DNA of 64,000 nt from Myxococcota bacterium. Its GTDB lineage: Bacteria > Myxococcota_A > SURF-8. The stretch is taken from contig OZ223209.1 of the NCBI GenBank assembly GCA_965140415.1, positions 544,001-608,000 on the forward strand, in the 5' to 3' direction. Shown here in pieces: positions 1 to 13,529 of this stretch (the first letter of the stretch is position 1; each line of letters opens with the position of its first letter). The translations under genes were made by a program, and so were the position numbers. The notes under the pieces were generated by a model, which saw only the letters and a program-made list of their open reading frames with translations, was not told the origin of the DNA and searched no databases.

Positions 1-172
1 AACGGCAGTGAAACGTTGTCGGGCGCTCGCCCTCCTGAAAGCAAAGGTGCTTCGGATCGTAAAGATAGTCGCTCTGGTAGCGTTCCAAGTCGCTGTGTTC
101 CGTATCGATAGCCGGATCGGCCATGGAAACGAGCGTGTATTCATGCATAGTTTTCACGCTTGAAATCGTCAT
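1..172 (-). CDS. Partial CDS (runs off left edge); phage tail-region protein, position typical of a tail assembly chaperone
   Basis: Not in ORF track; ATG at 172 preceded by TAAGGA, open to the edge (MTISSVKTMHEYTLVSMADPAIDTEHSDLERY...); directly follows tail tube gene. Confidence 0.6.
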   Translation of the reverse strand, partial: MTISSVKTMHEYTLVSMADPAIDTEHSDLERYQSDYLYDPKHLCFQEGERPTTFHCR

Positions 173-197
173 CGTAGAATCCTTATGTTATGGGAAG

Positions 198-1433
198 TTA
201 ACTTTGAGTAGTGCCGCAAAAAGCCAGGGTCCAGTCGCCAACGCCGTCTATATCGCAACAAACCGGAGCGAATCCGATTTCCATCCCCAACAGACCGTTG
301 ATCTTCTGCTCTTTAATCGAGCGCAGCTCGGCGGCTGGAGCATGAAATCCGATCCCGTTGGCGGCATTGCCTACAATCCAGGAGATGTCGACTTTATCCC
401 CGGATTGCAATCGCAGCATATGCTCGGCATCCCAGTACACCACCGCTTTTCCCTGTGTGGCGATGCGGGTCAGAGCGAAGCCGTGTCGTCCTGTAGCGGA
501 TGTAGCATCGACGATCTCTCCCCATTCGTTACCGATGGAAAGAGAAAAACTCTGATACGCCACCGGCAGTCCGTTGATTCTGAAATCGGCACTTAAGGCG
601 CGCAGATCAGCCGGGGAAACGGGCCAACTTGTCGCACCATCGGCTTTGGAAATTGTTGGTGATCCGGTCAAGGCGCTGTACTGATCGCCTTTCAGTTCGT
701 AGCCAAGCAGCACACGTTTTCCGGCGCTGCTGTCCTCGATCGAAAGATCGCCGACCAGGCCGGAATAGGTCCAGACCGGTTGCGAGCCGGAAACGGAAAG
801 CCCGCTGATTTGCAGGCAGCAGGAACCCGGCGAATCGCTGCCGGGTTGGCATTGCGTCGCGGCGTAGAGCAGGCCCTCGTCGGTCGGTGTATCGTCGAGC
901 TGCCAGTTGTCTCCGCCAAACCAATGCCCCGAGATACGGACATCGCGCTGGATGTTGTCGATAAAGGAAATCCAGCGTCCTTGAGCATTGTCGCTGCCAT
1001 CGGGATCGACAAACACCAGCCCACCCAAGGTAAGCGAATTACCGGGAAGGGCTTGTGCGACTCGCACGATATCGCTGCTTCCGGAAGCAATGTTTAGCCC
1101 GCTGTCCGACTGCACCTGACTGAAACAACAACGGGTGAGCTTGTCGAGTTCAGGGCAAAGCTCTGCCGTCATGCCGGATGCCGCAGCTATGCCGCCTCCG
1201 CGTGCAGGCAGCTTCATTTTAACGGAGCAGGAAGACGCACCCGGCAGACCGGCGGTATTTCCCAAATCGGCTCGGATCGTCTCCCGTTTCAGGAATTCTG
1301 TTTTTCCTTGATGGTCGAAGCCATCCTGCTCGGGTCGAATCTCCTGATAGGCGGATGCATCCGAGCGGAACTGGCCGTAAGTTGTTTCCGGCGCTACGAG
1401 CACTTCGTAGCGGTCGGCAATGTATGCACACAT
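198..1433 (-). CDS. Phage tail tube protein (putative)
   Basis: 411 aa; N-terminal VAPETTYG motif typical of tail tube proteins; beta-rich; follows head-tail genes. Confidence 0.65.
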   Translation of the reverse strand: MCAYIADRYEVLVAPETTYGQFRSDASAYQEIRPEQDGFDHQGKTEFLKRETIRADLGNTAGLPGASSCSVKMKLPARGGGIAAASGMTAELCPELDKLTRCCFSQVQSDSGLNIASGSSDIVRVAQALPGNSLTLGGLVFVDPDGSDNAQGRWISFIDNIQRDVRISGHWFGGDNWQLDDTPTDEGLLYAATQCQPGSDSPGSCCLQISGLSVSGSQPVWTYSGLVGDLSIEDSSAGKRVLLGYELKGDQYSALTGSPTISKADGATSWPVSPADLRALSADFRINGLPVAYQSFSLSIGNEWGEIVDATSATGRHGFALTRIATQGKAVVYWDAEHMLRLQSGDKVDISWIVGNAANGIGFHAPAAELRSIKEQKINGLLGMEIGFAPVCCDIDGVGDWTLAFCGTTQS

Positions 1434-1456
1434 CGAATAGTCTCCCTGATTCGTGG

Positions 1457-1909
1457 TTAAGCCGGTTCATCCACCAGCAGGTAAAAGCGATGCTGAAAGC
1501 GCAGGTAAGGTTCTTCCAAGGTGTCGATATCGGAATCCACATGCTGAACCAGTCGCACGAGTGGTGAGGCGTAATGTGCCGTGTCTTCCAATTCTTTGCG
1601 AAACAGATCACATTCCGCCGAGAAATATTGTTCCACCAGGTGTGTATGTGTGGACAACGGATACAACACACGGATCGTCAGTTTCACCTCAAAAGCGCGA
1701 AGTTCCGTCCCTGCTATGGCTGCGGGTTGCTGCTGCTGTATGGATATGGAAAAGCAGCGGAAATCCTGGGTGGAATGTGGCTGCTTCCCATTTTGAGCGG
1801 GTATCCGCTGATATCCACGGTTCCATGGTGAACGGGCGACATGTGAAAACGGAGTCAGGTTTTCAAGTTGCTGTGCCATACCCTGTACCTGATCGCTAAG
1901 CGTGCTCAT
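1457..1909 (-). CDS. Phage tail completion/terminator-like protein
   Basis: 150 aa between connector and tail tube, 4-nt overlap with upstream gene; assignment by position and size. Confidence 0.45.
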   Translation of the reverse strand: MSTLSDQVQGMAQQLENLTPFSHVARSPWNRGYQRIPAQNGKQPHSTQDFRCFSISIQQQQPAAIAGTELRAFEVKLTIRVLYPLSTHTHLVEQYFSAECDLFRKELEDTAHYASPLVRLVQHVDSDIDTLEEPYLRFQHRFYLLVDEPA

Positions 1910-2622
1910 GGCTGCAACCTCACTACCAGCTTGTTTTCGACTCCGTCATCAATGACATCGTTTTGATTGTGATCCATTTCCGAACGTGCCATCAATTCCT
2001 GAAAACCCTGTTCATACTGCTCTCGCCATTGTTGCTGCTTGTGCCAGTGACCGGAATCCTGCCCGGATGCCGACCGCAGATAAATCAAACTCAAGGTCAA
2101 CAGGCGGTGACAACGATCCAGCCCCGCCTTGTTACGTACCAAGCCCGGTGATACACCACGAGCGCGTAAGTGAAGCCGAATGTGTTCTTCCGCTTCGGCG
2201 ATCAATTCCTGAAAATCCGGTGAAAGTTGGTCGTCTTCATAAGACAGCGCCGGGGAAAGAGCCAGTAAATCTGCGCTCGTCAGTTGTGAGCGCCAGGGAT
2301 CGGCAAGCACATCGAAATAAAACACACGCCGGTATTGGCTTTGATCGACCGTAAAGGAAATCTCTGCTCGATAATTGCTGCCAATGGGCCATTGGTCAGT
2401 GTCGCTGGTGTCCAGCTCGATCTCGAACCGCTGCAAATCAGCGTTCCAGTTGGCCGATTGAGCACTTGCAACAAGAGAATTCCCACGTGGATTCCAAATA
2501 TCAAACTGGCCCTGTAACGGTGCTTCGGGATCGCTTTGTAATTCACGATTGTTTACGACAGGCCGGAAAAACAATTGTTCGGACGGAGATCCGCTGCGGA
2601 TTTCATCGGTATAGTAAAGCAT
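1906..2622 (-). CDS. Phage head-tail connector/adaptor-like protein with N-terminal beta domain
   Basis: 238 aa; C-terminal helical part (FQELIAEAEEHIRLHLRARG...LSLIY...QYEQ) resembles adaptor proteins; operon position. Confidence 0.55.
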   Translation of the reverse strand: MLYYTDEIRSGSPSEQLFFRPVVNNRELQSDPEAPLQGQFDIWNPRGNSLVASAQSANWNADLQRFEIELDTSDTDQWPIGSNYRAEISFTVDQSQYRRVFYFDVLADPWRSQLTSADLLALSPALSYEDDQLSPDFQELIAEAEEHIRLHLRARGVSPGLVRNKAGLDRCHRLLTLSLIYLRSASGQDSGHWHKQQQWREQYEQGFQELMARSEMDHNQNDVIDDGVENKLVVRLQP

Positions 2623-2645
2623 GGTGCGTCCTTTGTATAAGCAGG

Positions 2646-4100
2646 TTAGGGTAGCGATAGCACGTGGAGTACTGCTTTCCAGTTGATGCTAGTTGCCGCC
2701 GTACCGGTGACAAGTAGCTCGGCAGCCTGCTCGCTAGTATTGACACTAAGCGTTGCGTTCCAGTCTGCGTTGCTTTCCGATGCAAACATTGAGAGCGTAC
2801 TTCCCTGCTGGGTCACATCCGCACCGATTCCACGGTAAAACAAACCCTTTATGCAATAAACGGCGTGGTGGTCATCTCCCTGCTTGACAAGGATGCGGGC
2901 TTCTACGAGCTTGGTTTCTCCCTCGGCAAGGGCAACCGTGGCAAGAGCAGTAGCCGTTGCATCCGTCGTGGTGATCTCATGCGTAGAAATGCTGTCGAAG
3001 CCGTCTAGGCCATCGATTTCGGAATGTAGATGCATTGGAAATGGTACGCTGCAAATCGGAGATTGATCCGCGTCTAGATCGCCTGCGCCATCCCCTATGA
3101 TGTCACTGTAATCACGCTCGACAAGCGTTGTCGTCTGCCCGTGCTTGATTGGCCAGGTGGGAGTACCCAATAGGGCTACGGTTTCAAAACCGCTGCTTGA
3201 TTCGGGATATTCCGGTGCGCCGTAAACCATAGTCGTGGCTACAAGATAAAAATCGTTTGTGCGTGTGCTATCTTGTGTCCAGTTAACGCCGTCGCTGGAG
3301 TATTTGTAAATCGAGGAAAAGTCCGTTGGACTGGGAAGATCGCCACAACATACGCAACCGGGGCCGTCTACAACAATCCAAACCGATGCACCCGCAGCTA
3401 ACGGAATGTTCACGTAGAAGACATGTTCGCTACCCCGATCGTAGTAAAAACTGGCCCAGTCTTTATTAACGGTTGCAACCATGTTTTCAGACGTAGGCTC
3501 ATCGGGATTCGTCCCCGAGCCGCATGAATGCACACTGTAGGTTCCGTTGGCCCAGTTGTAATAATCTGGAGCCGCCCGAATACCGAGTGAAATAATATTT
3601 CGATCCGTATCCGTATTGTTTGTGAGCTTGAAGGCGCGGATCACATTGCACACGGGGGTTAGGTTGCTGAGCGGCGGAAGAGTGGAGTTGTTGATAAGTT
3701 CGGAGCTACCCCCAGAAACTTCCGATCCTTTCTTTACACGAGTAATGCCGCTGACTGGATCGTACTCCAGAATTCCGAGCGCTGCCATGCCCGAATTGAC
3801 GGGAAACGGTGCAGTGCTTTGCCAGGTGGCGGGAAGTTGCTCGTTTGCTATGCCGTTTACCGTGCCCGAGCAAAGATCGAAGCGCAAAGGGCCAAGATTT
3901 TGCAGGATAGGTTGAGCATGTTCCGGGTAAGCGCGTCCACGAATGTTACCATTCTGATCGCGCAAAAGAGGAACAGATGCATCGATCTGCATTGAAGCAA
4001 ACGGAACATGCTGAGCTACCAACGGAAAGCGATGACTGTCCAACGCTTTGCCGTGCGAGAAACCGTCGCATTTCTTTTCAAAACTGTTCAGTTGAGGCAT
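2646..4100 (-). CDS. Virion fibre/spike-like protein
   Basis: Start reassigned to ATG 4100 (MPQLNSF, AGGTG RBS, 7 nt after upstream stop); beta-rich; C-terminal TTTDATAT...VTGTAATSINWKA domain resembling phage fibre C-termini. Confidence 0.5.
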   Translation of the reverse strand: MPQLNSFEKKCDGFSHGKALDSHRFPLVAQHVPFASMQIDASVPLLRDQNGNIRGRAYPEHAQPILQNLGPLRFDLCSGTVNGIANEQLPATWQSTAPFPVNSGMAALGILEYDPVSGITRVKKGSEVSGGSSELINNSTLPPLSNLTPVCNVIRAFKLTNNTDTDRNIISLGIRAAPDYYNWANGTYSVHSCGSGTNPDEPTSENMVATVNKDWASFYYDRGSEHVFYVNIPLAAGASVWIVVDGPGCVCCGDLPSPTDFSSIYKYSSDGVNWTQDSTRTNDFYLVATTMVYGAPEYPESSSGFETVALLGTPTWPIKHGQTTTLVERDYSDIIGDGAGDLDADQSPICSVPFPMHLHSEIDGLDGFDSISTHEITTTDATATALATVALAEGETKLVEARILVKQGDDHHAVYCIKGLFYRGIGADVTQQGSTLSMFASESNADWNATLSVNTSEQAAELLVTGTAATSINWKAVLHVLSLP

Positions 4101-4107
4101 GGCGCAC

Positions 4108-4665
4108 CTATGCAATCGTATAAATGTTAAGCACAACGCCTTCACCGTTTTGTTCTGCATCGAGATACACACCTGCAAGATCGATTCGGCTACCGGCTGG
4201 ACAAGTAATGGTGTAGGATTCACCCGCTTCCAAAGGTGCAACTGGCAAACTGCTGTAGTGCACGGAGCTATTGCCGACAAATACCTTGCCGAGATTGTTC
4301 GACTTTGCGGTGATATCAACACGCCAGGTATAACTTGAACCGGCGGCTAGTGGTACCGGCGTTCCCGCGCTTGTGACCGTAACGGCTTGTGATGCAATGG
4401 AAAGTGTGGAGGCGTCCGGTGCAAGTTGTACGCTAGGTTGCGCAGCGATGGTTACGGCGGAAGTGTCGCAGAGAGTGACTTTGCCATCCAGCGAATCCAG
4501 CGCGCTACGGATATCCGGGGAATTGGTTTCATACACATGCAAATCGCCGTCTTCATCGACCTGCGCTCGGTGTTCGCCGCTTGCGTCTTTCAATTCGACT
4601 GCACCAAAGGAAACGTCGGCCATCTCCAATGTGATATCGGTATTCGGGTAGGTTTTTTCCGCCAT
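4108..4665 (-). CDS. Phage structural protein (head decoration/fibre base-like)
   Basis: Start at ATG 4665 with GGAGGT RBS; beta-rich C-terminal domain (ITAKSNNLGKVFVG...PLEAGES). Confidence 0.5.
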   Translation of the reverse strand: MAEKTYPNTDITLEMADVSFGAVELKDASGEHRAQVDEDGDLHVYETNSPDIRSALDSLDGKVTLCDTSAVTIAAQPSVQLAPDASTLSIASQAVTVTSAGTPVPLAAGSSYTWRVDITAKSNNLGKVFVGNSSVHYSSLPVAPLEAGESYTITCPAGSRIDLAGVYLDAEQNGEGVVLNIYTIA

Positions 4666-4667
4666 GC

Positions 4668-4946
4668 TTACCTCCAACTCATAGCGACGTTGACAGATGC
4701 GTCGGTCAAATCGCTGGCCACGGCGCGGACTTCATACCAACCGTAGTTTTCCAGGTTCACTTCACCGCTTTCACTCAAGGTTTCGATGTCGATCCAGTCC
4801 GCACCCGCCTGTCGTGCCTGAATGGCACAGCTTGCGCTTCCTGTTATGGCGACTGCAAACAGCATACGCTCATATAGCGCGGCAGGCTGTGCCGCACCTT
4901 CGGTGTCTTGCGTGCATTGCAAGATGGTTTTGGAGTGGTATCCCAT
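4668..4946 (-). CDS. Small phage structural protein
   Basis: 92 aa, AAAGGAA RBS, tightly coupled to next gene. Confidence 0.55.
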   Translation of the reverse strand: MGYHSKTILQCTQDTEGAAQPAALYERMLFAVAITGSASCAIQARQAGADWIDIETLSESGEVNLENYGWYEVRAVASDLTDASVNVAMSWR

Positions 4947-4975
4947 ATTCGTTCCTTTCCGTTCGTAAAGGTGGG

Positions 4976-5018
4976 GCGGTTAAGACCGGATACCCAAAGG
5001 AGATCCGGTCTTAACCGC
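4976..5018. other. Perfect 16-bp stem-loop inside the structural operon
   Basis: GCGGTTAAGACCGGAT-N11-ATCCGGTCTTAACCGC; no clear U-tract. Confidence 0.75.
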
Positions 5019-5047
5019 TGGGAGTCGATCCCTAAAGGAGAAGACTT

Positions 5048-5404
5048 TTAGCAGGAGAAAGAGAGCAGATAGGTGAAAGAGGGCGTGTCACTCCCTCCGA
5101 TGGTGGCGTCGTAGCGATAGTAGCGGTACTTCTGAGCACCGATGGCCGCCTGAATCTTTCCGCTATCCGTGATCTGCGGCAAAGACAGAATCTCGGTCCA
5201 GCTATCGCCGTCTTCAGAACCTTCAATAGCGATATCCAAAGTCGGCGAGGTGCCGCTTACATCGCTGACGAAGGCTTGCACCATGCAGGTTTCCGGCAAA
5301 CTGCCGAAGTCGTTGCTGTCACCGGTCGTGCTCGAGGTCTGCTCGCCCGCCGCTTTAAGCAGCAGCTCATCGTCGTAGCGGGAGCGCGTTCGTTGCTGGC
5401 TCAT
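5048..5404 (-). CDS. Capsid cement/decoration protein (putative)
   Basis: 118 aa all-beta protein immediately after major capsid; IEGSEDG..W and KYRYYR pattern reminiscent of Bbp16-like cement proteins. Confidence 0.55.
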   Translation of the reverse strand: MSQQRTRSRYDDELLLKAAGEQTSSTTGDSNDFGSLPETCMVQAFVSDVSGTSPTLDIAIEGSEDGDSWTEILSLPQITDSGKIQAAIGAQKYRYYRYDATIGGSDTPSFTYLLSFSC

Positions 5405-5419
5405 TATTGATTCTCCTTG

Positions 5420-6328
5420 TTAGCTGGTTTGGGTGACGCCCTGCAAGCGGGCCGCCGATTTGGGATGCAGAATGACGAACGAGGCCAGCCATTCGATTAC
5501 CGTCAGGTAGCGCAGGTCGCTTTGCAGACCCATGTCGATGACGTCCATCACGTGATCCTGCACGCCGCTGATATATTCCTCCGCTCCGAAGCGCACGGCG
5601 TAAATCGAACCGCAGGTGTCGCCGGAGCCGCAGCTTTCGTCGAAACCGAGGATGTCGTCGCCGCTCTGATCTTCTTCCACGATGCGGATGGGAACGCCGC
5701 CATACATTGTCACCTGGCGACCGAATGCGTCTTCGCCATAGGAAATGCGCCCGTCGGTTCGCAATAGCTTGGTGACTTCGCGCCGCATGGCTTTGCTCAT
5801 CAGCAGCATGTCCGGCATTCCGGCTACGGAATCGATCAGGTCGTCCAGCATGGCTACCGTCAACGCCGCACCGTTATCACCGGCGGTGATCACCTGGTTG
5901 CCGGTCAAGCGGGCGTTCAGTCCATCGAACTGGCGCGGATCGCTGTTGGAGTTTCCGTCAAAGAACATGCGGGTAAAAAACAGCGCCGCCGCTTTGGCTT
6001 TCAGGCGGTCGTGAATGGCGCGCAGTTCGCCCACCGTTTCGCCGCGTTCGCCGACCAGCGCGCGGTCAACCTGGGATTTGCCACCGAAGATCTTGGTGGT
6101 TTCCACGTTCTGCTGCAACACGCCGGTGGATTCGGTGTAATCCTCGTTGATGCCACGAAAGGCGATGCCAGGCAGAATTTCCTCGCGGTTGTATTTGAAT
6201 ACGCCGCCGGGCACGTTGATAAAGGGCATGGCCTCCAGAATGGGCGAGACCATGGGGAAGACTTCGACCACGTTTCGTTTGATGAAGTCGGTTTCCAGTT
6301 TGGCGGCTTCTAAAAGCGTTAACGCCAT
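5420..6328 (-). CDS. Major capsid protein (HK97 fold)
   Basis: 302 aa; MALTLLEAAKL, SPILEAMPF, FRGINEDYTESTG, FDGLNAR, SIYAVRFG, HPKSAARLQGV motifs; follows scaffold. Confidence 0.9.
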   Translation of the reverse strand: MALTLLEAAKLETDFIKRNVVEVFPMVSPILEAMPFINVPGGVFKYNREEILPGIAFRGINEDYTESTGVLQQNVETTKIFGGKSQVDRALVGERGETVGELRAIHDRLKAKAAALFFTRMFFDGNSNSDPRQFDGLNARLTGNQVITAGDNGAALTVAMLDDLIDSVAGMPDMLLMSKAMRREVTKLLRTDGRISYGEDAFGRQVTMYGGVPIRIVEEDQSGDDILGFDESCGSGDTCGSIYAVRFGAEEYISGVQDHVMDVIDMGLQSDLRYLTVIEWLASFVILHPKSAARLQGVTQTS

Positions 6329-6358
6329 GGGTAATTTCTCCTTGTGATGGGCGGTCCG

Positions 6359-6841
6359 TTACTGAGTTTTATAATTACGGGCCGCAAGTTGTTGCGTACT
6401 GGCTCCGGCGGTGTTCCGGCTGGCGGCCACCAGCGGAGCGCAAGGGATAGTCGCTGCCGCACCCTCCGGTGTGACAGTCGGGGAATTGAAGAAATAGGGA
6501 ACTTCGCTTTGAATCCGCTTGAACCATTCGTCAAGCTGTTCGGCATCGTCGGATTCTGGCAGACCTTTTCCGTTGATTGCAGTTATAAACGTGTCGATGT
6601 CTACGCAACCGGCTTGTTGCGCGCGCAATTCCAGTTTGTGTTTCACGTTCAGCGAATCCAGCGACTGCTGTAGCTGTGTGGCCTTCTGCTCGCTTTCTTC
6701 GCGTGCTGCGGCGGCTTTGCGCATGTCGGCTTTCAGACGTTTTACGTACTGCTTGTCTTCATCGGGCAGTCCGTTTTTCTGCATGTCGGCAAGTTGTTGT
6801 TCCAATTCTTCAATTCGTTGTAAGGCTTCAGATAGATCCAT
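6359..6841 (-). CDS. Capsid scaffolding protein
   Basis: Start at ATG 6841 with GGAGG RBS; coiled-coil, C-terminal PYFF motif; between portal and capsid. Confidence 0.75.
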   Translation of the reverse strand: MDLSEALQRIEELEQQLADMQKNGLPDEDKQYVKRLKADMRKAAAAREESEQKATQLQQSLDSLNVKHKLELRAQQAGCVDIDTFITAINGKGLPESDDAEQLDEWFKRIQSEVPYFFNSPTVTPEGAAATIPCAPLVAASRNTAGASTQQLAARNYKTQ

Positions 6842-6960
6842 GCTTCTCCTCCAAGAAACGGGGACAGAACGCACGCGGGCCTCCGCCCGGCGTACAGGGC
6901 AAAATGTGTTAGGAAATTATTGTTTCGATTGATTGATGGAAAACGGATATCGAACAGATA

Positions 6961-8400
6961 TCAGGGAGTGCTCGCAAGCATGCTGTCTTCACGATGGCGG
7001 CTATACAGTTCACGCGCCTGTTCCTGATCGATGCCAAGACGTTCGGATAGAATTTCCACCGGGGAGCGCAAACCAAGACTAATTTCGCGTTCCAGGTTTT
7101 TCAATTCTTCTTCTTTGGATAGTGGAATCACCTGTTCCGGGAAGGTTACGCTCAGATGCGTGTCTTTCAGATCGGAGGCGCCATCGAAGTCGCCCAGTAG
7201 CGCCAGTTCCCGCAGAATCGGCCACAGGTCTTCCTCTTCGATGGGCAGCAGCCGGTCGATCAGATCCTGGCGGTATTCGATTTCCGGCTGCTTGTCGTGA
7301 AATTTGGCCACGCCGGAAAGCAGTTCCACATCAAAGGTAAAAGCGGATGGTATGATCTCGTTGGACTGAGCAAACAGCTTCAGGAAAAAGAGCAGGTTCT
7401 GATTACGCTCCGCTTCGCGCGCTTGCACCGCCAGGGGTGTCAGCCGCTTGTCGTCATCTCCCAGGCAGATAATCGCTCCCGCACCGGTCGCTGGATTGGC
7501 TGTGCCCAGTTCTTCGGAGCTGCCATTAAAAACGTAAGCCGGAAAATCGGTCTGGCGCGAATTCATCGCGCCGCGTGTCAGTTCATGATCGAGCCAGTGA
7601 GCGGCGTGAAGCAGGCTGTGGGGCACGTCCGGAAAGAGTTCCGCACCGACCGGTTCATCTTTTCTCAATAGCACGAAAGGATAGCGATCCATACCGTTAT
7701 ACGCAGACCATTCCGCTGGCTGCGTCGTTAGCGGCACGAAGTTTTCATCCAGGCGTTCGACGTGCAGTCTGCGTCCGCCTTTCGGCTTGGGTTGCAGGCG
7801 ATAGCGCACGTAACCTACTGCTGTCCCGCCGCTTAAGGGCGAATCGGGTTTGTCGCCAAGCGGAATCATAATGCTATCCGCTTCCTGAAGGTTGGTCGGG
7901 TCCGTGCCGCTCTGCTCCACGATGAGTTGATGCGGAGGCAGTACGCTGATCACCGGGCAGTGTCGCCGGAAGTCGATTTGCACCCACAGCACCGAACAGT
8001 TGAGCAGTTCATATAATCGTAGCGCCCATTTCATGCGTGCATTCAGGCGGCATTGCCGCAGCAGGCGACGGGAAACGGCTTGTGCGGGATGGTCTTCCGG
8101 CAGTGGCGAACGTTCGGCGTCTAGCAGCATGCGTTTCGGTGGAATGCGATACAGCTTGGCCTTGGTATCCACCACCTTTCGCAGCAGGTTTACCGTCAAC
8201 AGATTCTGCGTCATCTGATCCGCGTTATTGGGATACAATCGGCGCAGGCGGCGGCGCAGGTCATCCATGCTGGAGTCGTTGTCTAAATAGCGATCCAGTA
8301 ATTCCTCGCAGTTGCTCGCCCATGCGCTATGGGCTGCGGCGCGGGCGCGTTGCTGATCCTGCGCAAACGTAGAGCGCCAGTCTTTTCCGAACAAGTGCAT
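6961..8400 (-). CDS. Phage portal protein
   Basis: 479 aa directly after terL; NLLRKVVDTKAKLY, LSGVA, VTFPEQVIP, C-terminal LGLRSPVEIL pattern of SPP1-like portals. Confidence 0.8.
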   Translation of the reverse strand: MHLFGKDWRSTFAQDQQRARAAAHSAWASNCEELLDRYLDNDSSMDDLRRRLRRLYPNNADQMTQNLLTVNLLRKVVDTKAKLYRIPPKRMLLDAERSPLPEDHPAQAVSRRLLRQCRLNARMKWALRLYELLNCSVLWVQIDFRRHCPVISVLPPHQLIVEQSGTDPTNLQEADSIMIPLGDKPDSPLSGGTAVGYVRYRLQPKPKGGRRLHVERLDENFVPLTTQPAEWSAYNGMDRYPFVLLRKDEPVGAELFPDVPHSLLHAAHWLDHELTRGAMNSRQTDFPAYVFNGSSEELGTANPATGAGAIICLGDDDKRLTPLAVQAREAERNQNLLFFLKLFAQSNEIIPSAFTFDVELLSGVAKFHDKQPEIEYRQDLIDRLLPIEEEDLWPILRELALLGDFDGASDLKDTHLSVTFPEQVIPLSKEEELKNLEREISLGLRSPVEILSERLGIDQEQARELYSRHREDSMLASTP

Positions 8401-8409
8401 CGTGCCTCC

Positions 8410-9741
8410 TTAGAGATAGGGAACGAGTTTAAGCCGTTCGCGGCTGAAGGGGTGTTCGTCGGCCACGTAGTAATCCAGCGCGTCGCCGCAGTGATCCAGC
8501 ACGAAACGCGGATCGCCGGGGTCGCGCACTTTTTCCTTTTCGAAACTGCCGGGTATGAAAAGCGACTGTTCCAGGCTGCGTATCAGGTATTTGCAGTGCG
8601 GCGCAATGAATAGACGGCTTTCTCCCAGGGTGTTCTTGAACAGAAAGTTCACGGCGTTGGTTCTGTCGCGGACGGACGGATTCGCCGAGCGCGCCTTCAC
8701 GCGGATTTTAAAATCCGGCAGATGGCCGAGCCGTTCGCGAATGATGGCATAGTCGCTGCCTTTGCCGCGATGATCGCGGGCGTAGCCGGTGGCGTCGCCG
8801 TGAATGCGCAATCCGGCGCGATGATCCCCGTATTTTCGTAGGATTTCATTGCATAGTTCCGCCGTGTCCGATCCGTGGCGCAGCACGATTTCGTCAACTA
8901 CCTCACAGCGGGTGGGACTGGGATTCTGCATGGCCAGCGCCACCATGAAATCGACGTTGAAATCGAAACTGAAATGCAGCGGTAATCCGGCCCGGTAACA
9001 AATGTTGCTATCCAAATGCCGCTCGCGATCGAAATTTCGGTACACGCGACCGCGAGAAATCGTTCCAGTGTGGCCCTCCAAATAGACCTGGGCGTACTCG
9101 TCATCGACAAGCTGCCGGATCGACTCGATATAGTCGGGTTTCTGCTCCAGTAAAAAGTGGTTTTCGCTGGTGGCTGCACGGATATAGCGAAAATTCGGCA
9201 ACACATTATCCGGCTCGATAAAGGTTCGATACAGATGACCGTAATGTTCTTCCGGGTTGCTGGTGATGAACATGCGGTAGCGCCGGGGAAGACGTTTGGA
9301 AATGCGTCGATAGTTACTGTGACGCAGGCGTGCCATCAGCGCGCGAAAGGTCGTCGCCGGTACTTGAGCGCCCTCTTCTACGTGAATCCAGTTGAACTCC
9401 ATGGAGCTAAGCCGTTGTGGTTGTGACAGGTGCCGGAACCAGATCTGCGAACCGTTTTTCAGTACAAGGTTGTCCGGGGAGCGGTTCCAGCGCTTGACCT
9501 GATCTTTTGGAACGAGTTCCCGCCAGCGCTCGCGGGTCGTGTCGTGCAGCAAAGTGTAGGTGGCTGCGCCAACAAGACCGCGACTGCCTGGATACAGGCG
9601 CGAGAGCAGATAACCCAATAGCACTCCGACCGTCGTCTTGCCGCTGCCCACTCCGCCTTGATACAGGGCGACATCGGTGGGAAGTTCGTGCGGCACCTCG
9701 ATCAGTGCCTTTTGAGATGGAAGCAGGCTAAAAGTCGTCAA
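8410..9741 (-). CDS. terL: Terminase large subunit
   Basis: Walker A GGVGSGKT, Walker B-like WIHVEE, coupling motif TSNP, nuclease motifs SFDFN and DHCGDALDY. Confidence 0.92.
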   Translation of the reverse strand: MTTFSLLPSQKALIEVPHELPTDVALYQGGVGSGKTTVGVLLGYLLSRLYPGSRGLVGAATYTLLHDTTRERWRELVPKDQVKRWNRSPDNLVLKNGSQIWFRHLSQPQRLSSMEFNWIHVEEGAQVPATTFRALMARLRHSNYRRISKRLPRRYRMFITSNPEEHYGHLYRTFIEPDNVLPNFRYIRAATSENHFLLEQKPDYIESIRQLVDDEYAQVYLEGHTGTISRGRVYRNFDRERHLDSNICYRAGLPLHFSFDFNVDFMVALAMQNPSPTRCEVVDEIVLRHGSDTAELCNEILRKYGDHRAGLRIHGDATGYARDHRGKGSDYAIIRERLGHLPDFKIRVKARSANPSVRDRTNAVNFLFKNTLGESRLFIAPHCKYLIRSLEQSLFIPGSFEKEKVRDPGDPRFVLDHCGDALDYYVADEHPFSRERLKLVPYL

Positions 9742-10171
9742 GGCTCAATCCTTCGATAGACAGGGTTTCGATGGGCGTCGGTTCTTCCAGATCCATAAGC
9801 TGTGACAGGCCCGCGTGAACGACCTTCAACACCGCAGCCTGTGCGGAAAGCGATTTCATGGTTTCGGTATGCAGGGGGGTATCCGGTGTGGATTCTTGCA
9901 GACCCTCCACCACGCGCCACCAAAGGCTGAGCAAGGTATGGCGCGCTTCTTCCGACTCGGGCAGAGCGAGGTTCGATTCCCGTTTCAAGAAACCGATTCG
10001 CTTGGGCCAATGTTGGCTGTGCTGTAAAAGCATCTGTTCATCCAGGCCGTAATAGCGGGCGAAGTCGCGCTTTCTCTGGAAGTGAGAGTTGTTCCAAAGA
10101 ACTCGCAATTGTGTTTCGGTCAGTTGTTGGTTGCCTATGAGAAAGGTCTTTTGATCGGTTGCGTCGTTCAT
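9728..10171 (-). CDS. Terminase small subunit-like protein
   Basis: Start at ATG 10171 with GAGGTG RBS; HTH-like segment KRDFARYYGLDEQML; overlaps terL start. Confidence 0.55.
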   Translation of the reverse strand: MNDATDQKTFLIGNQQLTETQLRVLWNNSHFQRKRDFARYYGLDEQMLLQHSQHWPKRIGFLKRESNLALPESEEARHTLLSLWWRVVEGLQESTPDTPLHTETMKSLSAQAAVLKVVHAGLSQLMDLEEPTPIETLSIEGLSLDDF

Positions 10172-10180
10172 GAGCACCTC

Positions 10181-10211
10181 AAAAAGAAACGGCCAGGACG
10201 AATCCTGGCCG
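10181..10211 (-). terminator. Intrinsic terminator immediately upstream of first structural gene
   Basis: Minus strand CGGCCAGGA-TTCG-TCCTGGCCG-TTTCTTTTT, abutting the RBS of the terS-like gene. Confidence 0.8.
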
Positions 10212-10387
10212 GGATTGGATACAGCTTGGCTTGGCTCTAATAGAACCACATTCTTCCGCCGAAAGAAAGACTCGTTTGGCAGTCTAGCGTTCTACGCGGG
10301 AGCGTCAGGCAGCGCGAAGCAGCATGAGAGTGCATTATCACGTAGGTGCAATCCAGTGGACCTTATTGTTGGAGCATGGCTCCAGCC

Positions 10388-11693
10388 CACAGCTGTCCCG
10401 CTAACTTCCAGGTTCAGCGCTACAACTACTTATTATTACAGATTGAATTTGTGATTATCAGGTGTCCGCGATAGTTTTTCTGCATTTCGAATAGTCAAGA
10501 AATGCAGGAGATCAAAATGACACAGACTGTCTTTTCGCAAGTGCTCGACTATTTGCCGGATCGCCATTTCCGCCGTTGTGTCAATCGCTATCAGGGGAAC
10601 AAGCGCATTCGTACCTTTTCCTGTATGGATCAATTCATTTGCATGGCATTTGCCCAGCTGGCCTACCGCGAAAGCCTGCGCGATATTGAAGCGACCTTGC
10701 GGGCTATTCAGCTGAAACTTTATCACATGGGTCTGCGTGGAAAAGTCTCTCGCAACACACTGGCCAGAGCGAATGAAAAACGCGACTGGCGCATTTACGC
10801 AGATCTCGCTCAGCCCCTGATACGGCGCGCCCGCGCGCTGTATGCGGACGAGAAGCTCGCCGTCGACCTAGACGCCACCACCTACGCGCTCGACACGACA
10901 GCGATTGATTTGAGTTTGTCGCTTTTTCCATGGGCCAAATTCACGCGATACAATGGATCATTGCGTCTTCACACGCAAATGGACCTTCGCGGACGGATTC
11001 CCGCCTTTATTTCCATTACGGACGGCAAGAGCCATGACAAGCGTTTACTGGATATTCTGCCTTTGGAAGCGGGCGCATTTTATATCATGGATCGCGGTTA
11101 TGTCGATTACGGACGCATGCATCGCATCCATCGGGCGGGAGCCTTCTTCATTCTTAGAGCCAGCAAGAACACCAGCACAAAGCGAATCTATTCACACCCC
11201 ATCGACAAGAGCTTGGGATTGCGCGCCGATCAGACCGTGAGCTTCGTGGACCGTGCTTCCATTCGACGCTATCCGGATCATGTGCGGCGAATCAACTACA
11301 TCGATCCAGAATCGAACACCCGATTTGTCTGGCTGACCAACAACTTTGATCTTTCTTCGGAAACGATTCCGGACTTGTACCGGCTGCGGTGGAGTATCGA
11401 AGTGTTTTTCAAATGGATCAAACAGAATCTGCGAATCAAGGCGTTTTACGGTCGCAGCGCCAATGCGGTAAAGACACAAGTGTGGATTTCGATTACGGTT
11501 TATCTGTTGGTTGCGATTCTGAAAAAGGATCTGAATCTCGAGCACAGTTTGATGACGATTCTACAGATTTTAAGCGTCACGCTTTTCGAGGAAAGCCCCA
11601 TTTTACAGGTGCTAAAGGCAAACGCCTCCCTGCCTACCAATATCCCTTTTGGTAAGCAGTTGGAATTATTCAATAGTTAACGGGACAGCTGTG
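10388..11693 (+). mobile_element. IS4-family insertion sequence (1306 bp)
   Basis: 19-bp terminal IRs CACAGCTGTCCCGCTAACT / AGTTAACGGGACAGCTGTG (1 mismatch); 10-bp target duplication GGCTCCAGCC at 10378-10387 and 11694-11703. Confidence 0.93.
10517..11680 (+). CDS. IS4-family DDE transposase
   Basis: LDTT, MDRGY and YRLRWSIEVFFKWIKQ (YREK signature) motifs; AGGAG RBS before ATG 10517; stop codon lies in right IR. Confidence 0.95.
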   Translation: MTQTVFSQVLDYLPDRHFRRCVNRYQGNKRIRTFSCMDQFICMAFAQLAYRESLRDIEATLRAIQLKLYHMGLRGKVSRNTLARANEKRDWRIYADLAQPLIRRARALYADEKLAVDLDATTYALDTTAIDLSLSLFPWAKFTRYNGSLRLHTQMDLRGRIPAFISITDGKSHDKRLLDILPLEAGAFYIMDRGYVDYGRMHRIHRAGAFFILRASKNTSTKRIYSHPIDKSLGLRADQTVSFVDRASIRRYPDHVRRINYIDPESNTRFVWLTNNFDLSSETIPDLYRLRWSIEVFFKWIKQNLRIKAFYGRSANAVKTQVWISITVYLLVAILKKDLNLEHSLMTILQILSVTLFEESPILQVLKANASLPTNIPFGKQLELFNS

Positions 11694-11794
11694 GGCTCCA
11701 GCCATGCTCCTCATGTTCATGCCGGATTCGTTATCAAAACAAACCGTTTTTTAACCGACTATCACCTTTTTCTTTTCTTCCGTCCTGGATAGGT

Positions 11795-11852
11795 GTCGGG
11801 TCAGGAGACCCGACCAAAACCTATGGAGCAGGGCAGGAGCCCATGCTCCAAC
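11795..11852. repeat. Composite REP-like repeat, copy 1
   Basis: Palindrome GTCGGGTC-AGGA-GACCCGAC (11795-11814) plus unit at 11825-11852 whose reverse complement matches 25755-25782 at 27/28 nt. Confidence 0.75.
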
Positions 11853-12099
11853 TAGGGAATATGTAATCCAGTCACGTAGCTTGGCAACGGTGTGGCCGAC
11901 AATTCATGATTTGCTTTGGGCGCACGTCTGCTTGGGTGAAATAAAAACAGATTCTTCTGCAAAAAGAAAGTAGCGAATCGGACTGCCTCGCCGCATGAGA
12001 GAGCGCCACGCAGCATGAAGGTGCAAGTCGCTTCGGAAAATCGCTGCGAACAGAATGTTACAGGCAGGTGTTGCGCTCTTTCACTACCACCGAGGATGA

Positions 12100-12954
12100 T
12101 TATTCCCCGTTGTCTTCATCCGTTTCCGGTTCGGCAGGTTGCTGGCCGTCGGCGATGGCTTGCAGTTGTTTGGCGCGTTGATAAGCCGCCGTGAAAGCGC
12201 GATGGAACACTTCTGGCGTTTCACTTGCTTTAAAAGAATTCAATGCTGCGGCGGTGGTGCCGCCTTTACTGGTGACGGAACGGCGCAGCTTCTGCGGTTC
12301 TTCGCCGGTTTCATGCCACAGATTCATCGCACCGCGAAAGGTCTGCTGCACCATGCGATGCGCCGCGCCGGAGGAAAAGCCCAGCATCACGGCGGACTTC
12401 ATCAGGTTTTCGGCGAAGTAGAAAATATAGGCTGGACCGGAACCGCTGATGGCGGTGGCGGCATCGATCAGGTCTTCTTCGTGCACTTGAATTTCGGTGC
12501 CGAAAGCCTGGAAAATCATTTTCACGATCATCTGGCTTTGATCCGAAACCTTCTCGCTGGCCATCCAGGCAGTCATGCCCTCGCCGATACGCGCGGGAAT
12601 GTTGGGCATCGCCCGCACCAGCAGATCGTGACCGGTGGCTTTGCCGATGGTCGTCAGGCCGACACCCGCCATAATCGACACCAGCACCTGGTCTTTTCGG
12701 AAATGACCTTTTAAAGTCGCCATCGCCGCAGGGGAATTCTGGGGTTTGACGCATAACAGCACGACATCAGCAAACTCCAGCAGCTTCTGGTTATCCATGG
12801 TGGTCTGGACTTCGTAGTCGCTCTCCATGGCGGTCAGGCGCGAAATGTCCAGATCGCTGATCATGATCTGATTGCGGGCGACAATCCGCTTTTTCAATAA
12901 CGACGACGTAATCACCTCGCCCATCGTACCTGCACCGATAATGCCGATCTTCAT
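12100..12954 (-). CDS. proC: Pyrroline-5-carboxylate reductase
   Basis: IGIIGAGTMG, CVKPQ, RAMPN, SGSGPAY, VTSKGGTT motifs. Confidence 0.97.
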   Translation of the reverse strand: MKIGIIGAGTMGEVITSSLLKKRIVARNQIMISDLDISRLTAMESDYEVQTTMDNQKLLEFADVVLLCVKPQNSPAAMATLKGHFRKDQVLVSIMAGVGLTTIGKATGHDLLVRAMPNIPARIGEGMTAWMASEKVSDQSQMIVKMIFQAFGTEIQVHEEDLIDAATAISGSGPAYIFYFAENLMKSAVMLGFSSGAAHRMVQQTFRGAMNLWHETGEEPQKLRRSVTSKGGTTAAALNSFKASETPEVFHRAFTAAYQRAKQLQAIADGQQPAEPETDEDNGE

Positions 12955-12989
12955 CTCTTCCCCTCTGTTCTTTCAAGAAAACACGTTGT

Positions 12990-13529
12990 TTATCGTAAAC
13001 GGGCTAGCAACTCTTCGGCCAGTTCCCGTAAATCGTCGTCATCTGCCATCATGGAAATGGAGTCCAGTTTTAAAATAAACTGCTGTTTGTGAGCCAGCGG
13101 TTGCTCGCGTTGGATGCGGTCGATCTGGCGCACGGCCAGTAACTGTACGTTTTCGTTCGGATGATCCAACACGCGCGCCAGCAGGTCGATATCATCCGGG
13201 AATTCGTCGTAACCAGCCAGGTATTCGTCTACGGACTTAGTCAGTTCGCTGGCACTGGTAGCGCGATGGATAGCTCCCAGCAGTTTCAGTTGGCCGGGGT
13301 CCGCATTGCTTTCGGCTTCCGGCATCATGTTTTTCAAATAGTCCGGAACGTCGCCGCCGGTAAACAACTTGTCCAGATCGCTTTTATAGTTCTGATACGC
13401 CGTGCTGTGCTGGCGTTTTTTTTCTCTTGGGGAATTGTCCTCGCGCGAGCGGTGCTGGCTGGAATCGCGACCGCGATCGATCTCGCGCCAGCTTTTCTTT
13501 TTGCGGTTGTCTTTGTCCCGATACGCCAT
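12990..13529 (-). CDS. Hypothetical protein (basic N-terminus, helical C-terminus)
   Basis: 179 aa ORF with AGGAG RBS, co-oriented in operon with acyP and proC. Confidence 0.75.
   Translation of the reverse strand: MAYRDKDNRKKKSWREIDRGRDSSQHRSREDNSPREKKRQHSTAYQNYKSDLDKLFTGGDVPDYLKNMMPEAESNADPGQLKLLGAIHRATSASELTKSVDEYLAGYDEFPDDIDLLARVLDHPNENVQLLAVRQIDRIQREQPLAHKQQFILKLDSISMMADDDDLRELAEELLARLR

Follow-up and report, generated by a model that had tools for sequence, protein, structure and literature searches.

A conserved stand-alone head-tail operon in a myxococcotal chromosome, probably a domesticated phage remnant resembling a gene transfer agent

We analyzed a 64,000-nucleotide (nt) stretch of a Myxococcota chromosome (G000:C1:544001-608000, here called the window; G000 is a 5.98-Mb genome in a single contig), the first 10.2 kb of which form the head half of a 21-gene phage head-tail operon. 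This operon, hereafter the cluster, consists of packaging and structural genes, carries no mobility genes, is conserved in relatives, has codiverged with its host under purifying selection, and is preceded by a conserved control architecture. On this genomic evidence, we consider it probable (roughly 0.6) that the cluster is an independently domesticated phage remnant that encodes a DNA-packaging tailed particle similar to a gene transfer agent (GTA). A domesticated particle-producing system had been proposed in an earlier, sequence-only reading of this DNA, and the flanks, the relatives, the codivergence, and the purifying selection reported below support that proposal. More tentatively, and at somewhat less than even odds, the cluster may be a GTA of the host class's own, derived from a siphovirus with an epsilon15-type capsid and induced by factor-dependent read-through; it would then be the first in the phylum and the third independent case of an antitermination-gated GTA.

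The whole operon comprises 21 codirectional minus-strand genes that span 18.8 kb (G000:535368-554171). Its organization agrees with what had been described from the letters, namely, (i) an uninterrupted codirectional head-tail series, which lies on the minus strand at positions 1-10249 of the window, (ii) tight coupling of the genes, with intergenic distances calculated from the coordinates of -14 to +30 nt and three exceptions of 86, 101, and 345 nt, and (iii) a left end outside the window, which we located after 8.6 kb and 10 further genes to the left of the window edge. The gene order is terS-like, TerL, portal, scaffold, epsilon15-gp7-type capsid, connector-position genes, tube candidate, and tail genes, and none of the cluster proteins has a paralogue elsewhere in G000. 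The genes inside the window are listed below; lengths are given in amino acids (aa), and G000 to G009 are the 10 species genomes of the host class in our collection.

9728-10171, minus strand: terS-like gene, 147 aa from the ATG at 10171; named for its position before TerL; orthologues in G001 and G004 with 31% identity
8410-9741, minus strand: TerL, 443 aa; PF04466 (1.6e-14), PF03237, and phrog_2 (1e-32)
6961-8400, minus strand: predicted portal, 479 aa; AlphaFold2 (AF2) model with a mean confidence score (pLDDT) of 76.3; best Foldseek match in the Protein Data Bank (PDB) with an E value of 3.6e-9
6359-6874, minus strand: scaffolding protein, 171 aa; PF06810 (1.1e-9) and phrog_194
5420-6328, minus strand: major capsid protein of the epsilon15 gp7 type, 302 aa; NF045672, PF20911, and phrog_212
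5048-5404, minus strand: 118-aa protein adjoining the capsid gene; phrog_9522 (1.2e-8) as sole match; candidate decoration or cement protein
4668-4946, minus strand: 92-aa conserved protein; orthologues in G001, G004, G006, and G003
2646-4322, minus strand: 558-aa variable-slot protein, earlier labeled a fibre; no family match
1906-2622, minus strand: 238-aa conserved protein, connector by position only; orthologues in G001, G004, G003, G006, and G009; no family match
1457-1909, minus strand: 150-aa conserved protein, connector by position only; tblastn matches in G001, G004, G003, and G006; no family match
198-1433, minus strand: 411-aa major tail (tube) protein candidate; ESM Atlas 0.98; phrog_290 ("minor tail"), 2.2e-7
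1-172, minus strand: start of a 154-aa protein, tail chaperone by position; the operon runs on leftward to G000:535368

The family matches listed above bear out the earlier assignment of TerL, scaffold, and capsid. The capsid protein scores 240.8 bits against NF045672 (cut-off, 75) over residues 4-298, which places it in the epsilon15 gp7 type, and matches phrog_212 with an E value of 5.7e-69; it shares 82%, 79%, 69%, and 72% identity with its orthologues in G001, G004, G003, and G006, respectively. For TerL, the nearest NCBIfam model is that of the PBSX family (TIGR01547), against which it scores 52.9 bits, under the cut-off of 105. The 479-aa protein has no Pfam match, and its family amounts to 18 proteins among 5.8 billion, none of them with a Pfam domain. 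The top Foldseek matches in the PDB of its AF2 model, which was built from 17 relatives, are portals or portal-containing complexes, with the exception of one tail complex. By its modeled fold the protein is a portal, as had been claimed; the further qualifier "SPP1-like" found no specific support. The terS-like protein matched no family in the Pfam, PHROG, and NCBIfam scans. Its start is more likely the ATG at 10171 than the GTG at 10249, because a conserved leader hairpin (10190-10211) lies inside the listed open reading frame (ORF). Its AF2 model is of low confidence (pLDDT 53.5); in this model, residues 19-52 form three short helices (pLDDT ~70-76) that may correspond to a helix-turn-helix. 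The 118-aa protein is conserved in G001, G004, G003, and G007.

The cluster is embedded among host genes. Beyond the tail genes seen in the window, where the sequence-only reading had advised a search for integrase and replication genes and att sites, the left flank contains 10 more tail genes and then host genes. These are a Zn-ribbon/GYF protein followed by a giant ORF of 3742 aa (G000:C1:521229-532457, plus strand), situated ~3 kb past the distal end of the cluster. On the other side, upstream of terS, we found the insertion sequence (IS; DUF4372 and DDE_Tnp_1) and then proC (P5CR) that had been reported there; synteny with proC, which had been suggested as a test, turned out to be specific to G000 and is not conserved in the relatives. 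No integrase, replication, or repressor gene and no att repeat was found at the G000 locus or at the six related loci inspected. G000 has 14 matches to PF00589, none within 24 kb of the cluster, and among the matches listed for the relatives none is located within 400 kb of the cluster in G001, G004, and G006 or on the cluster contig of G009. No bracketing direct repeat of at least 14 nt was found around the G000 cluster. Wherever scanned, the flanks consist of host genes or genes with no family match: an acyltransferase, rpe or adenosine deaminase, a CarboxypepD_reg protein, and a sigma54 activator in G001 and G004; an aminotransferase, a ClpX-like protein, and an MFS/spermidine synthase protein in G006; and pilMNOPQ and a LarC-like protein in G007. 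At the seven genome loci, the cluster thus contains packaging and structural genes only, which is one of the genomic criteria for a GTA (PMC11841831). Classification as a temperate prophage was rejected, since no integrase, repressor, replication, or lysis modules or att repeats were found.

Presence in close relatives had been named as a check, and the cluster was found in 7 of the 10 class genomes, each copy lying between host genes. The capsid profile gave close matches in six of them (G000, G001, G003, G004, G006, and G009) and a distant match in G007. In G001 and G004, 19 of the 20 G000 cluster proteins queried have colinear matches, the exception being the 558-aa slot; the 21st gene (83 aa) was matched in a separate comparison. 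G003, G006, and G009 have most cluster genes in common, and in the G007 copy, at 22-33% identity, the gene order is unchanged and the genes are of nearly identical size. The possibility that the G009 copy is pseudogenized was rejected, as the frameshifts split flanking host genes too and were read as assembly errors. A full copy is also present on metagenome contig L129, directly preceded by a six-gene block whose homologues are consecutive on the G000 chromosome; in all, two metagenome contigs carry homologues of G000 chromosomal genes upstream of the cluster. Outside the host class, only the capsid gene is held in common (37-55% identity), along with a weak portal match. When the portal and tube alignments were used in pattern scans of IMG/VR, no relative was retrieved, although such pattern-based scans can miss distant kin.

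Several lines of evidence indicate that the cluster has been inherited with its host, with long-term vertical inheritance and codivergence. (i) The RpoB tree resolves the clades {G000,G001,G002,G004}, {G003,G005}, and {G006,G009}, and the tree of six concatenated cluster proteins resolves {G000,G001,G004}, G003, and {G006,G009} with support of 100/100. The two trees, compared as the sequence-only reading had recommended, show the same clades; the codivergence evidence covers 6-7 taxa. (ii) Both flanks are common to G001 and G004, which belong to different genera, and likewise to G006 and G009. (iii) Divergence of the cluster accompanies that of the hosts. The identity of host proteins to those of G000, from reciprocal best hits over 400 kb, is 56.5% for G001 (n=169), 54.5% for G004 (n=78), and 45.2% for G006 (n=111), and the mean identity of the cluster proteins, by arithmetic, is ~46%, ~46%, and ~36%, respectively. 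The tube protein likewise diverges in step with RpoB, with identities of 73.6%, ~49%, and ~29% where RpoB has 96.7%, ~82%, and 71-75%. (iv) Purifying selection, likewise singled out beforehand as a check, is evident between G006 and G009: four cluster genes have ratios of nonsynonymous to synonymous substitution rates (dN/dS) of 0.10-0.17 at dS of 1.3-2.6, and for a fifth no dS was obtained. In the same pair, two genes of the flanks have a similar dS (1.3-1.5) and dN/dS of 0.03-0.07. (v) The composition of the cluster is that of its genome, with a G+C content of 0.542 versus 0.524 (80th percentile) and a codon-usage distance at the 43rd percentile of genome blocks.

The same three elements precede the first gene in six lineages (G000, G001, G004, G003, and the metagenome contigs L127 and L128). 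In the window they are the following.

10278-10335, minus strand: array of short GCTNC-like repeats with ~10-bp phasing, upstream of the promoter; candidate activator sites
10240-10268, minus strand: promoter-like site with -35 TTTCTT, a 17-nt spacer containing a GGGG..AGA.TGTG-like motif, and -10 TTCTAT
10181-10211, minus strand: terminator-like leader hairpin (9 bp, 7 of them G-C) with a T-run after it, immediately ahead of the terS ribosome-binding site

The repeat motif varies by lineage, and autocorrelation places shifts of 10 and 20 nt (11 and 21 in G003) as the top two in five of the six lineages (z 2.9-5.7); the G000 repeats are the weakest of the six, shifts 10 and 20 tying for second (z 2.0) behind shift 13 (z 2.1). 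The promoter consensus, obtained from an anchored comparison of five lineages, is TTga.t-tcGGGGggAGAtTGTG.-TT.aAT with a 17- to 18-nt spacer that contains GGGG..AGA.TGTG; a generic sigma-70 scan did not pick up the site at 10240-10268. The hairpin (10190-10211) is the strongest terminator-like site on the minus strand of window positions 1-12200 and has a minimum free energy (MFE) of -21.1 kcal/mol (z -3.5). The six lineages folded all have an equivalent hairpin, G+C rich, with 8-13 bp and 5-8 U; the whole-leader MFE is -14.6 to -27.1 kcal/mol, and 10-20 nt separate the end of the hairpin from the ribosome-binding site. The edge of the IS (~10414) is upstream of the control region, which is left intact. 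In G004, the whole control unit of repeats, promoter, and hairpin is tandemly duplicated upstream of terS with a period of 187 nt (L015:10468-10786). A permissive Rfam scan of window positions 1-13000 gave no match, and a sigma-54 promoter noticed by eye upstream of the G006 cluster was dropped because its spacing is off by one.

By analogy, this layout suggests activator and antitermination control, as in the Caulobacter GTA (CcGTA). A preprint on BaGTA (10.1101/2024.11.20.624540) reportedly describes antitermination as well. In CcGTA, GafY and IHF activate, and GafZ lets the polymerase bypass a terminator; a putative GafZ element is described in the spacer between -35 and -10, a placement also given for lambda Q and AlpA (PMC11150451). 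No gene for a Q-, AlpA-, or GafZ-like regulator was identified here. In the mechanism that we propose, a host-encoded factor would bind the 10-bp-phased repeats and the conserved motif in the spacer between -35 and -10, activate the promoter, and let RNA polymerase read through the leader terminator; without the factor, this terminator would stop transcription ~50 nt downstream. Once expressed, the terminase would fill capsids with cellular DNA in a headful mode, and release would proceed via lysis functions probably encoded elsewhere. The cluster, equipped with no means to replicate, integrate, or excise, passes vertically with the chromosome.

The tail side of the operon was assigned largely from position and from remote matches. 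The label "tube" for the 411-aa protein stands as a candidate assignment: it is a lead from ESM Atlas, with a score of 0.98 to viral clusters that have PF18906 (Phage_tube_2) in 24-55% of their members, and from phrog_290. To its left, the genes encode, in order, 154, 120, 242, 234, 239, 1037, 234, 326, ~240, and 83 aa. Two genes stand at the tail-chaperone position. With a long segment that is hydrophobic and rich in glycine, the 242-aa protein is a candidate short tape measure, which would imply a short noncontractile tail. The 1037-aa protein, with short PHROG matches to tail, tail-fibre, and baseplate proteins and every Atlas lead below 0.9, is a putative distal tail protein, and the 83-aa protein has one hydrophobic segment, as in a small protein with a single transmembrane segment. 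The N-terminal stretches of the adjacent 234-aa and 239-aa proteins (L001:17162-18582; G000:541162-542582) look alike by eye, and the two may be tandem paralogues. No PDB sequence reached an E value below 0.1 in profile searches with the alignments of the portal, the tube, and the 1037-aa protein. The 150-aa protein has a blastp match to a syntenic 147-aa ORF in G009. The only variable position of the cluster is the 558-aa slot, which is unmatched in G001, G004, and G003; a match of just 106-117 residues was found in a 769-aa ORF of G006 and at the same position in G009.

The assembly was checked against two short-read runs as contigs only, which are blind to rare excised forms and to expression. 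A single short-read contig covers L131 1-19513 and ends at the multicopy IS. Both runs have one extra G at L131:904 (G000:535804) that is absent from the assembly, and it is precisely here that the alignment to the orthologues in G001 and G004 continues in the next frame, over their C-terminal 61 residues. The penultimate gene, listed as 179 aa, is really ~240 aa; on the evidence of the short reads and the orthologue alignment, truncation was ruled out in favor of a 1-nt assembly error. The contig otherwise shows no joints and no other letters. The 345-nt gap between the 92-aa and 558-aa genes (window 4323-4667, minus strand) is overlapped by a 189-aa ORF (4108-4677) in a different frame; the short-read contig has no indel there, and possible causes of the gap are a small additional gene, a misassigned start, or a frameshift site. 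The IS (window 10414-11700; its ORF at 10502-11680, plus strand) has a depth in run X1 ~10 times that of the flanking DNA (~340 versus 34) and is therefore multicopy in the genome; short-read contigs break at its edge.

Two observations concern other mobile DNA in these genomes. A second G000 element (G000:C1:1152530-1163597; L132:2530-13597), at ~1.15-1.16 Mb and 600 kb off the cluster, encodes a 1116-aa protein with an AEP-TOTE primase domain, a PRiA4_ORF3-like protein, a large serine recombinase, and a weak TerL-like ATPase (PF03237, 1.3e-5). In G006 there are ~100 PF00589 matches, many of which are identical copies that recur two or three together at a spacing of ~0.8 kb; this pattern suggests that an element with a recombinase has been highly amplified.

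A number of findings weigh against a domesticated GTA-like particle. The capsid profile has no match in G002, G005 (79% complete), and G008, and metagenome contig L128 carries a copy (L128:10246-10882) with a deletion that begins midway through the 242-aa gene and extends to the 326-aa gene, so that the 234-, 239-, 1037-, and 234-aa distal tail genes are missing. The tail proteins evolve faster than host genes. For the selection estimates, dS is near saturation in the sole usable pair (G006 versus G009). The chromosomal position of the cluster differs between clades, in genomes whose gene order is heavily scrambled relative to one another. The conserved sigma54-activator block, next to which the cluster lies in G001 and G004, is present with no adjoining cluster in G002, G003, G005, and G008; there, the acyltransferase does not adjoin it, and no precise empty site was found. 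Since the position differs between clades and a precise empty site was not found, ancient mobility is possible. The N-terminal three-helix domain of the terS-like protein is perhaps retained, according to the low-confidence model, and known GTAs are reported to lack the DNA-binding domain of TerS (PMC11841831). No lysis enzyme was identified in or beside the cluster. Finally, particle production, packaging of host DNA, transfer, and antitermination are properties that we infer from the genes.

The main rival is a domesticated PBSX-like DNA-packaging particle with another role, such as killing, competition, altruistic lysis, or signaling, which we regard as unlikely. The conservation evidence is the same for such a particle as for a GTA, the PBSX terminase family is the nearest NCBIfam model for TerL, and the authors of the FpGTA study leave open DNA delivery by particles of this kind (PMC12946183). 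However, the TIGR01547 score stays under its cut-off (52.9 versus 105), no PBSX-like repressor or lysis cassette was found beside the cluster, and the conservation of terS, TerL, and portal shows that DNA packaging itself is under selection. The latter genes also separate the cluster from R- and F-type tailocins, which have tail genes and no capsid, portal, or terminase genes and were ruled out because TerL, portal, scaffold, and capsid genes are present and conserved. Decay is distinctly improbable: a functionless cryptic prophage, conserved by chance or through recent independent acquisitions of related phages, would be in keeping with the IS ~240 bp upstream of terS in G000, the absence from 3 of the 10 class genomes, the deletion variant on L128, and the differing positions, but all 21 ORFs are intact at ~55% host amino acid identity, dN/dS is 0.10-0.17, both flanks are common across genera, the tree is congruent with that of the host, and the portal and tube queries found no IMG/VR relative.

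Very improbable, and the least probable of the explanations weighed, is an active mobile element with the cluster as its late-gene half, either a split prophage or a satellite that depends on a helper phage for replication and lysis. G000 does hold the element with the AEP primase, TerL-like ATPase, and serine recombinase at ~1.15-1.16 Mb, yet this element lies 600 kb away and has no protein in common with the cluster, and the short-read contig, blind to rare excised forms, spans the cluster at flank depth with no joint. Satellites of the cf-PICI type have integrase, primase or replication, and capsid genes and no tail genes; a capsid-forming satellite was ruled out, as the cluster has a tail module and neither integrase nor primase nearby. 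An RcGTA-type GTA (Rhodogtaviriformidae) was rejected as well. PF05065 (HK97-type capsid) has no match anywhere in G000, and no RcGTA tail family (e.g., PF13550) was matched in the Pfam and NCBIfam scans (19 of the 21 cluster proteins were scanned against Pfam); the sole trace of RcGTA is an Atlas lead of 0.86 to a cluster with PF13550 and Rcc01698_C. Taken together, these data favor the domesticated, DNA-packaging GTA-like particle.

GTAs have been shown experimentally in few lineages, and their bioinformatic detection relies on similarity to RcGTA (PMC11841831). The present cluster has the genomic hallmarks of domestication with components that are not homologous to those of RcGTA, in agreement with the earlier statement that its layout is unlike that of RcGTA. 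Judged by title or abstract, no paper that our literature searches retrieved is about a GTA from Myxococcota or myxobacteria. The conserved region of repeats, promoter, and terminator offers a handle for finding the regulator and the inducing condition, which are the usual obstacle in the validation of candidate GTAs.

Among known systems, the complete Paenibacillus phage Tripp (NC_028930) has a capsid protein 46% identical to that of the cluster and the same order of TerL, portal, scaffold, and major capsid protein. It differs in having a 963-aa tape measure, a holin, an endolysin, an integrase, and a repressor, none of which was found here, where the candidate tape measure is 242 aa. PBSX of Bacillus subtilis has its own repressor and lysis genes, which were not seen in the myxococcotal cluster; its terminase family is the one nearest to the TerL of the cluster. 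Compared by description, PBSX and the Faecalibacterium FpGTA are, like the cluster, phage-derived DNA-packaging systems that evolved independently outside the Alphaproteobacteria. FpGTA is described as podovirus-like, with two operons and with holin and endolysin genes (PMC12946183), neither of which was seen here. RcGTA and CcGTA belong to a different phylum and resemble the cluster in being stand-alone head-tail-packaging operons of ~15-19 kb among host genes, with no replication or integration genes, and in a siphovirus-like order that ends in a very large distal tail protein. RcGTA has an HK97-type capsid with a protease, in contrast to the epsilon15-gp7-type capsid and scaffold found here. 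Vertical inheritance is a further likeness (PMC11841831). In CcGTA, too, a terminator lies downstream of the promoter and has to be bypassed (PMC11150451), although its terminator follows the first gene and that of the cluster precedes it. The mechanism proposed here is drawn from DNA architecture, unlike those of lambda Q, AlpA, and GafZ, and this architecture has the same two parts, a conserved element between -35 and -10 and, shortly downstream, an intrinsic terminator that gates a long late operon (PMC11150451).

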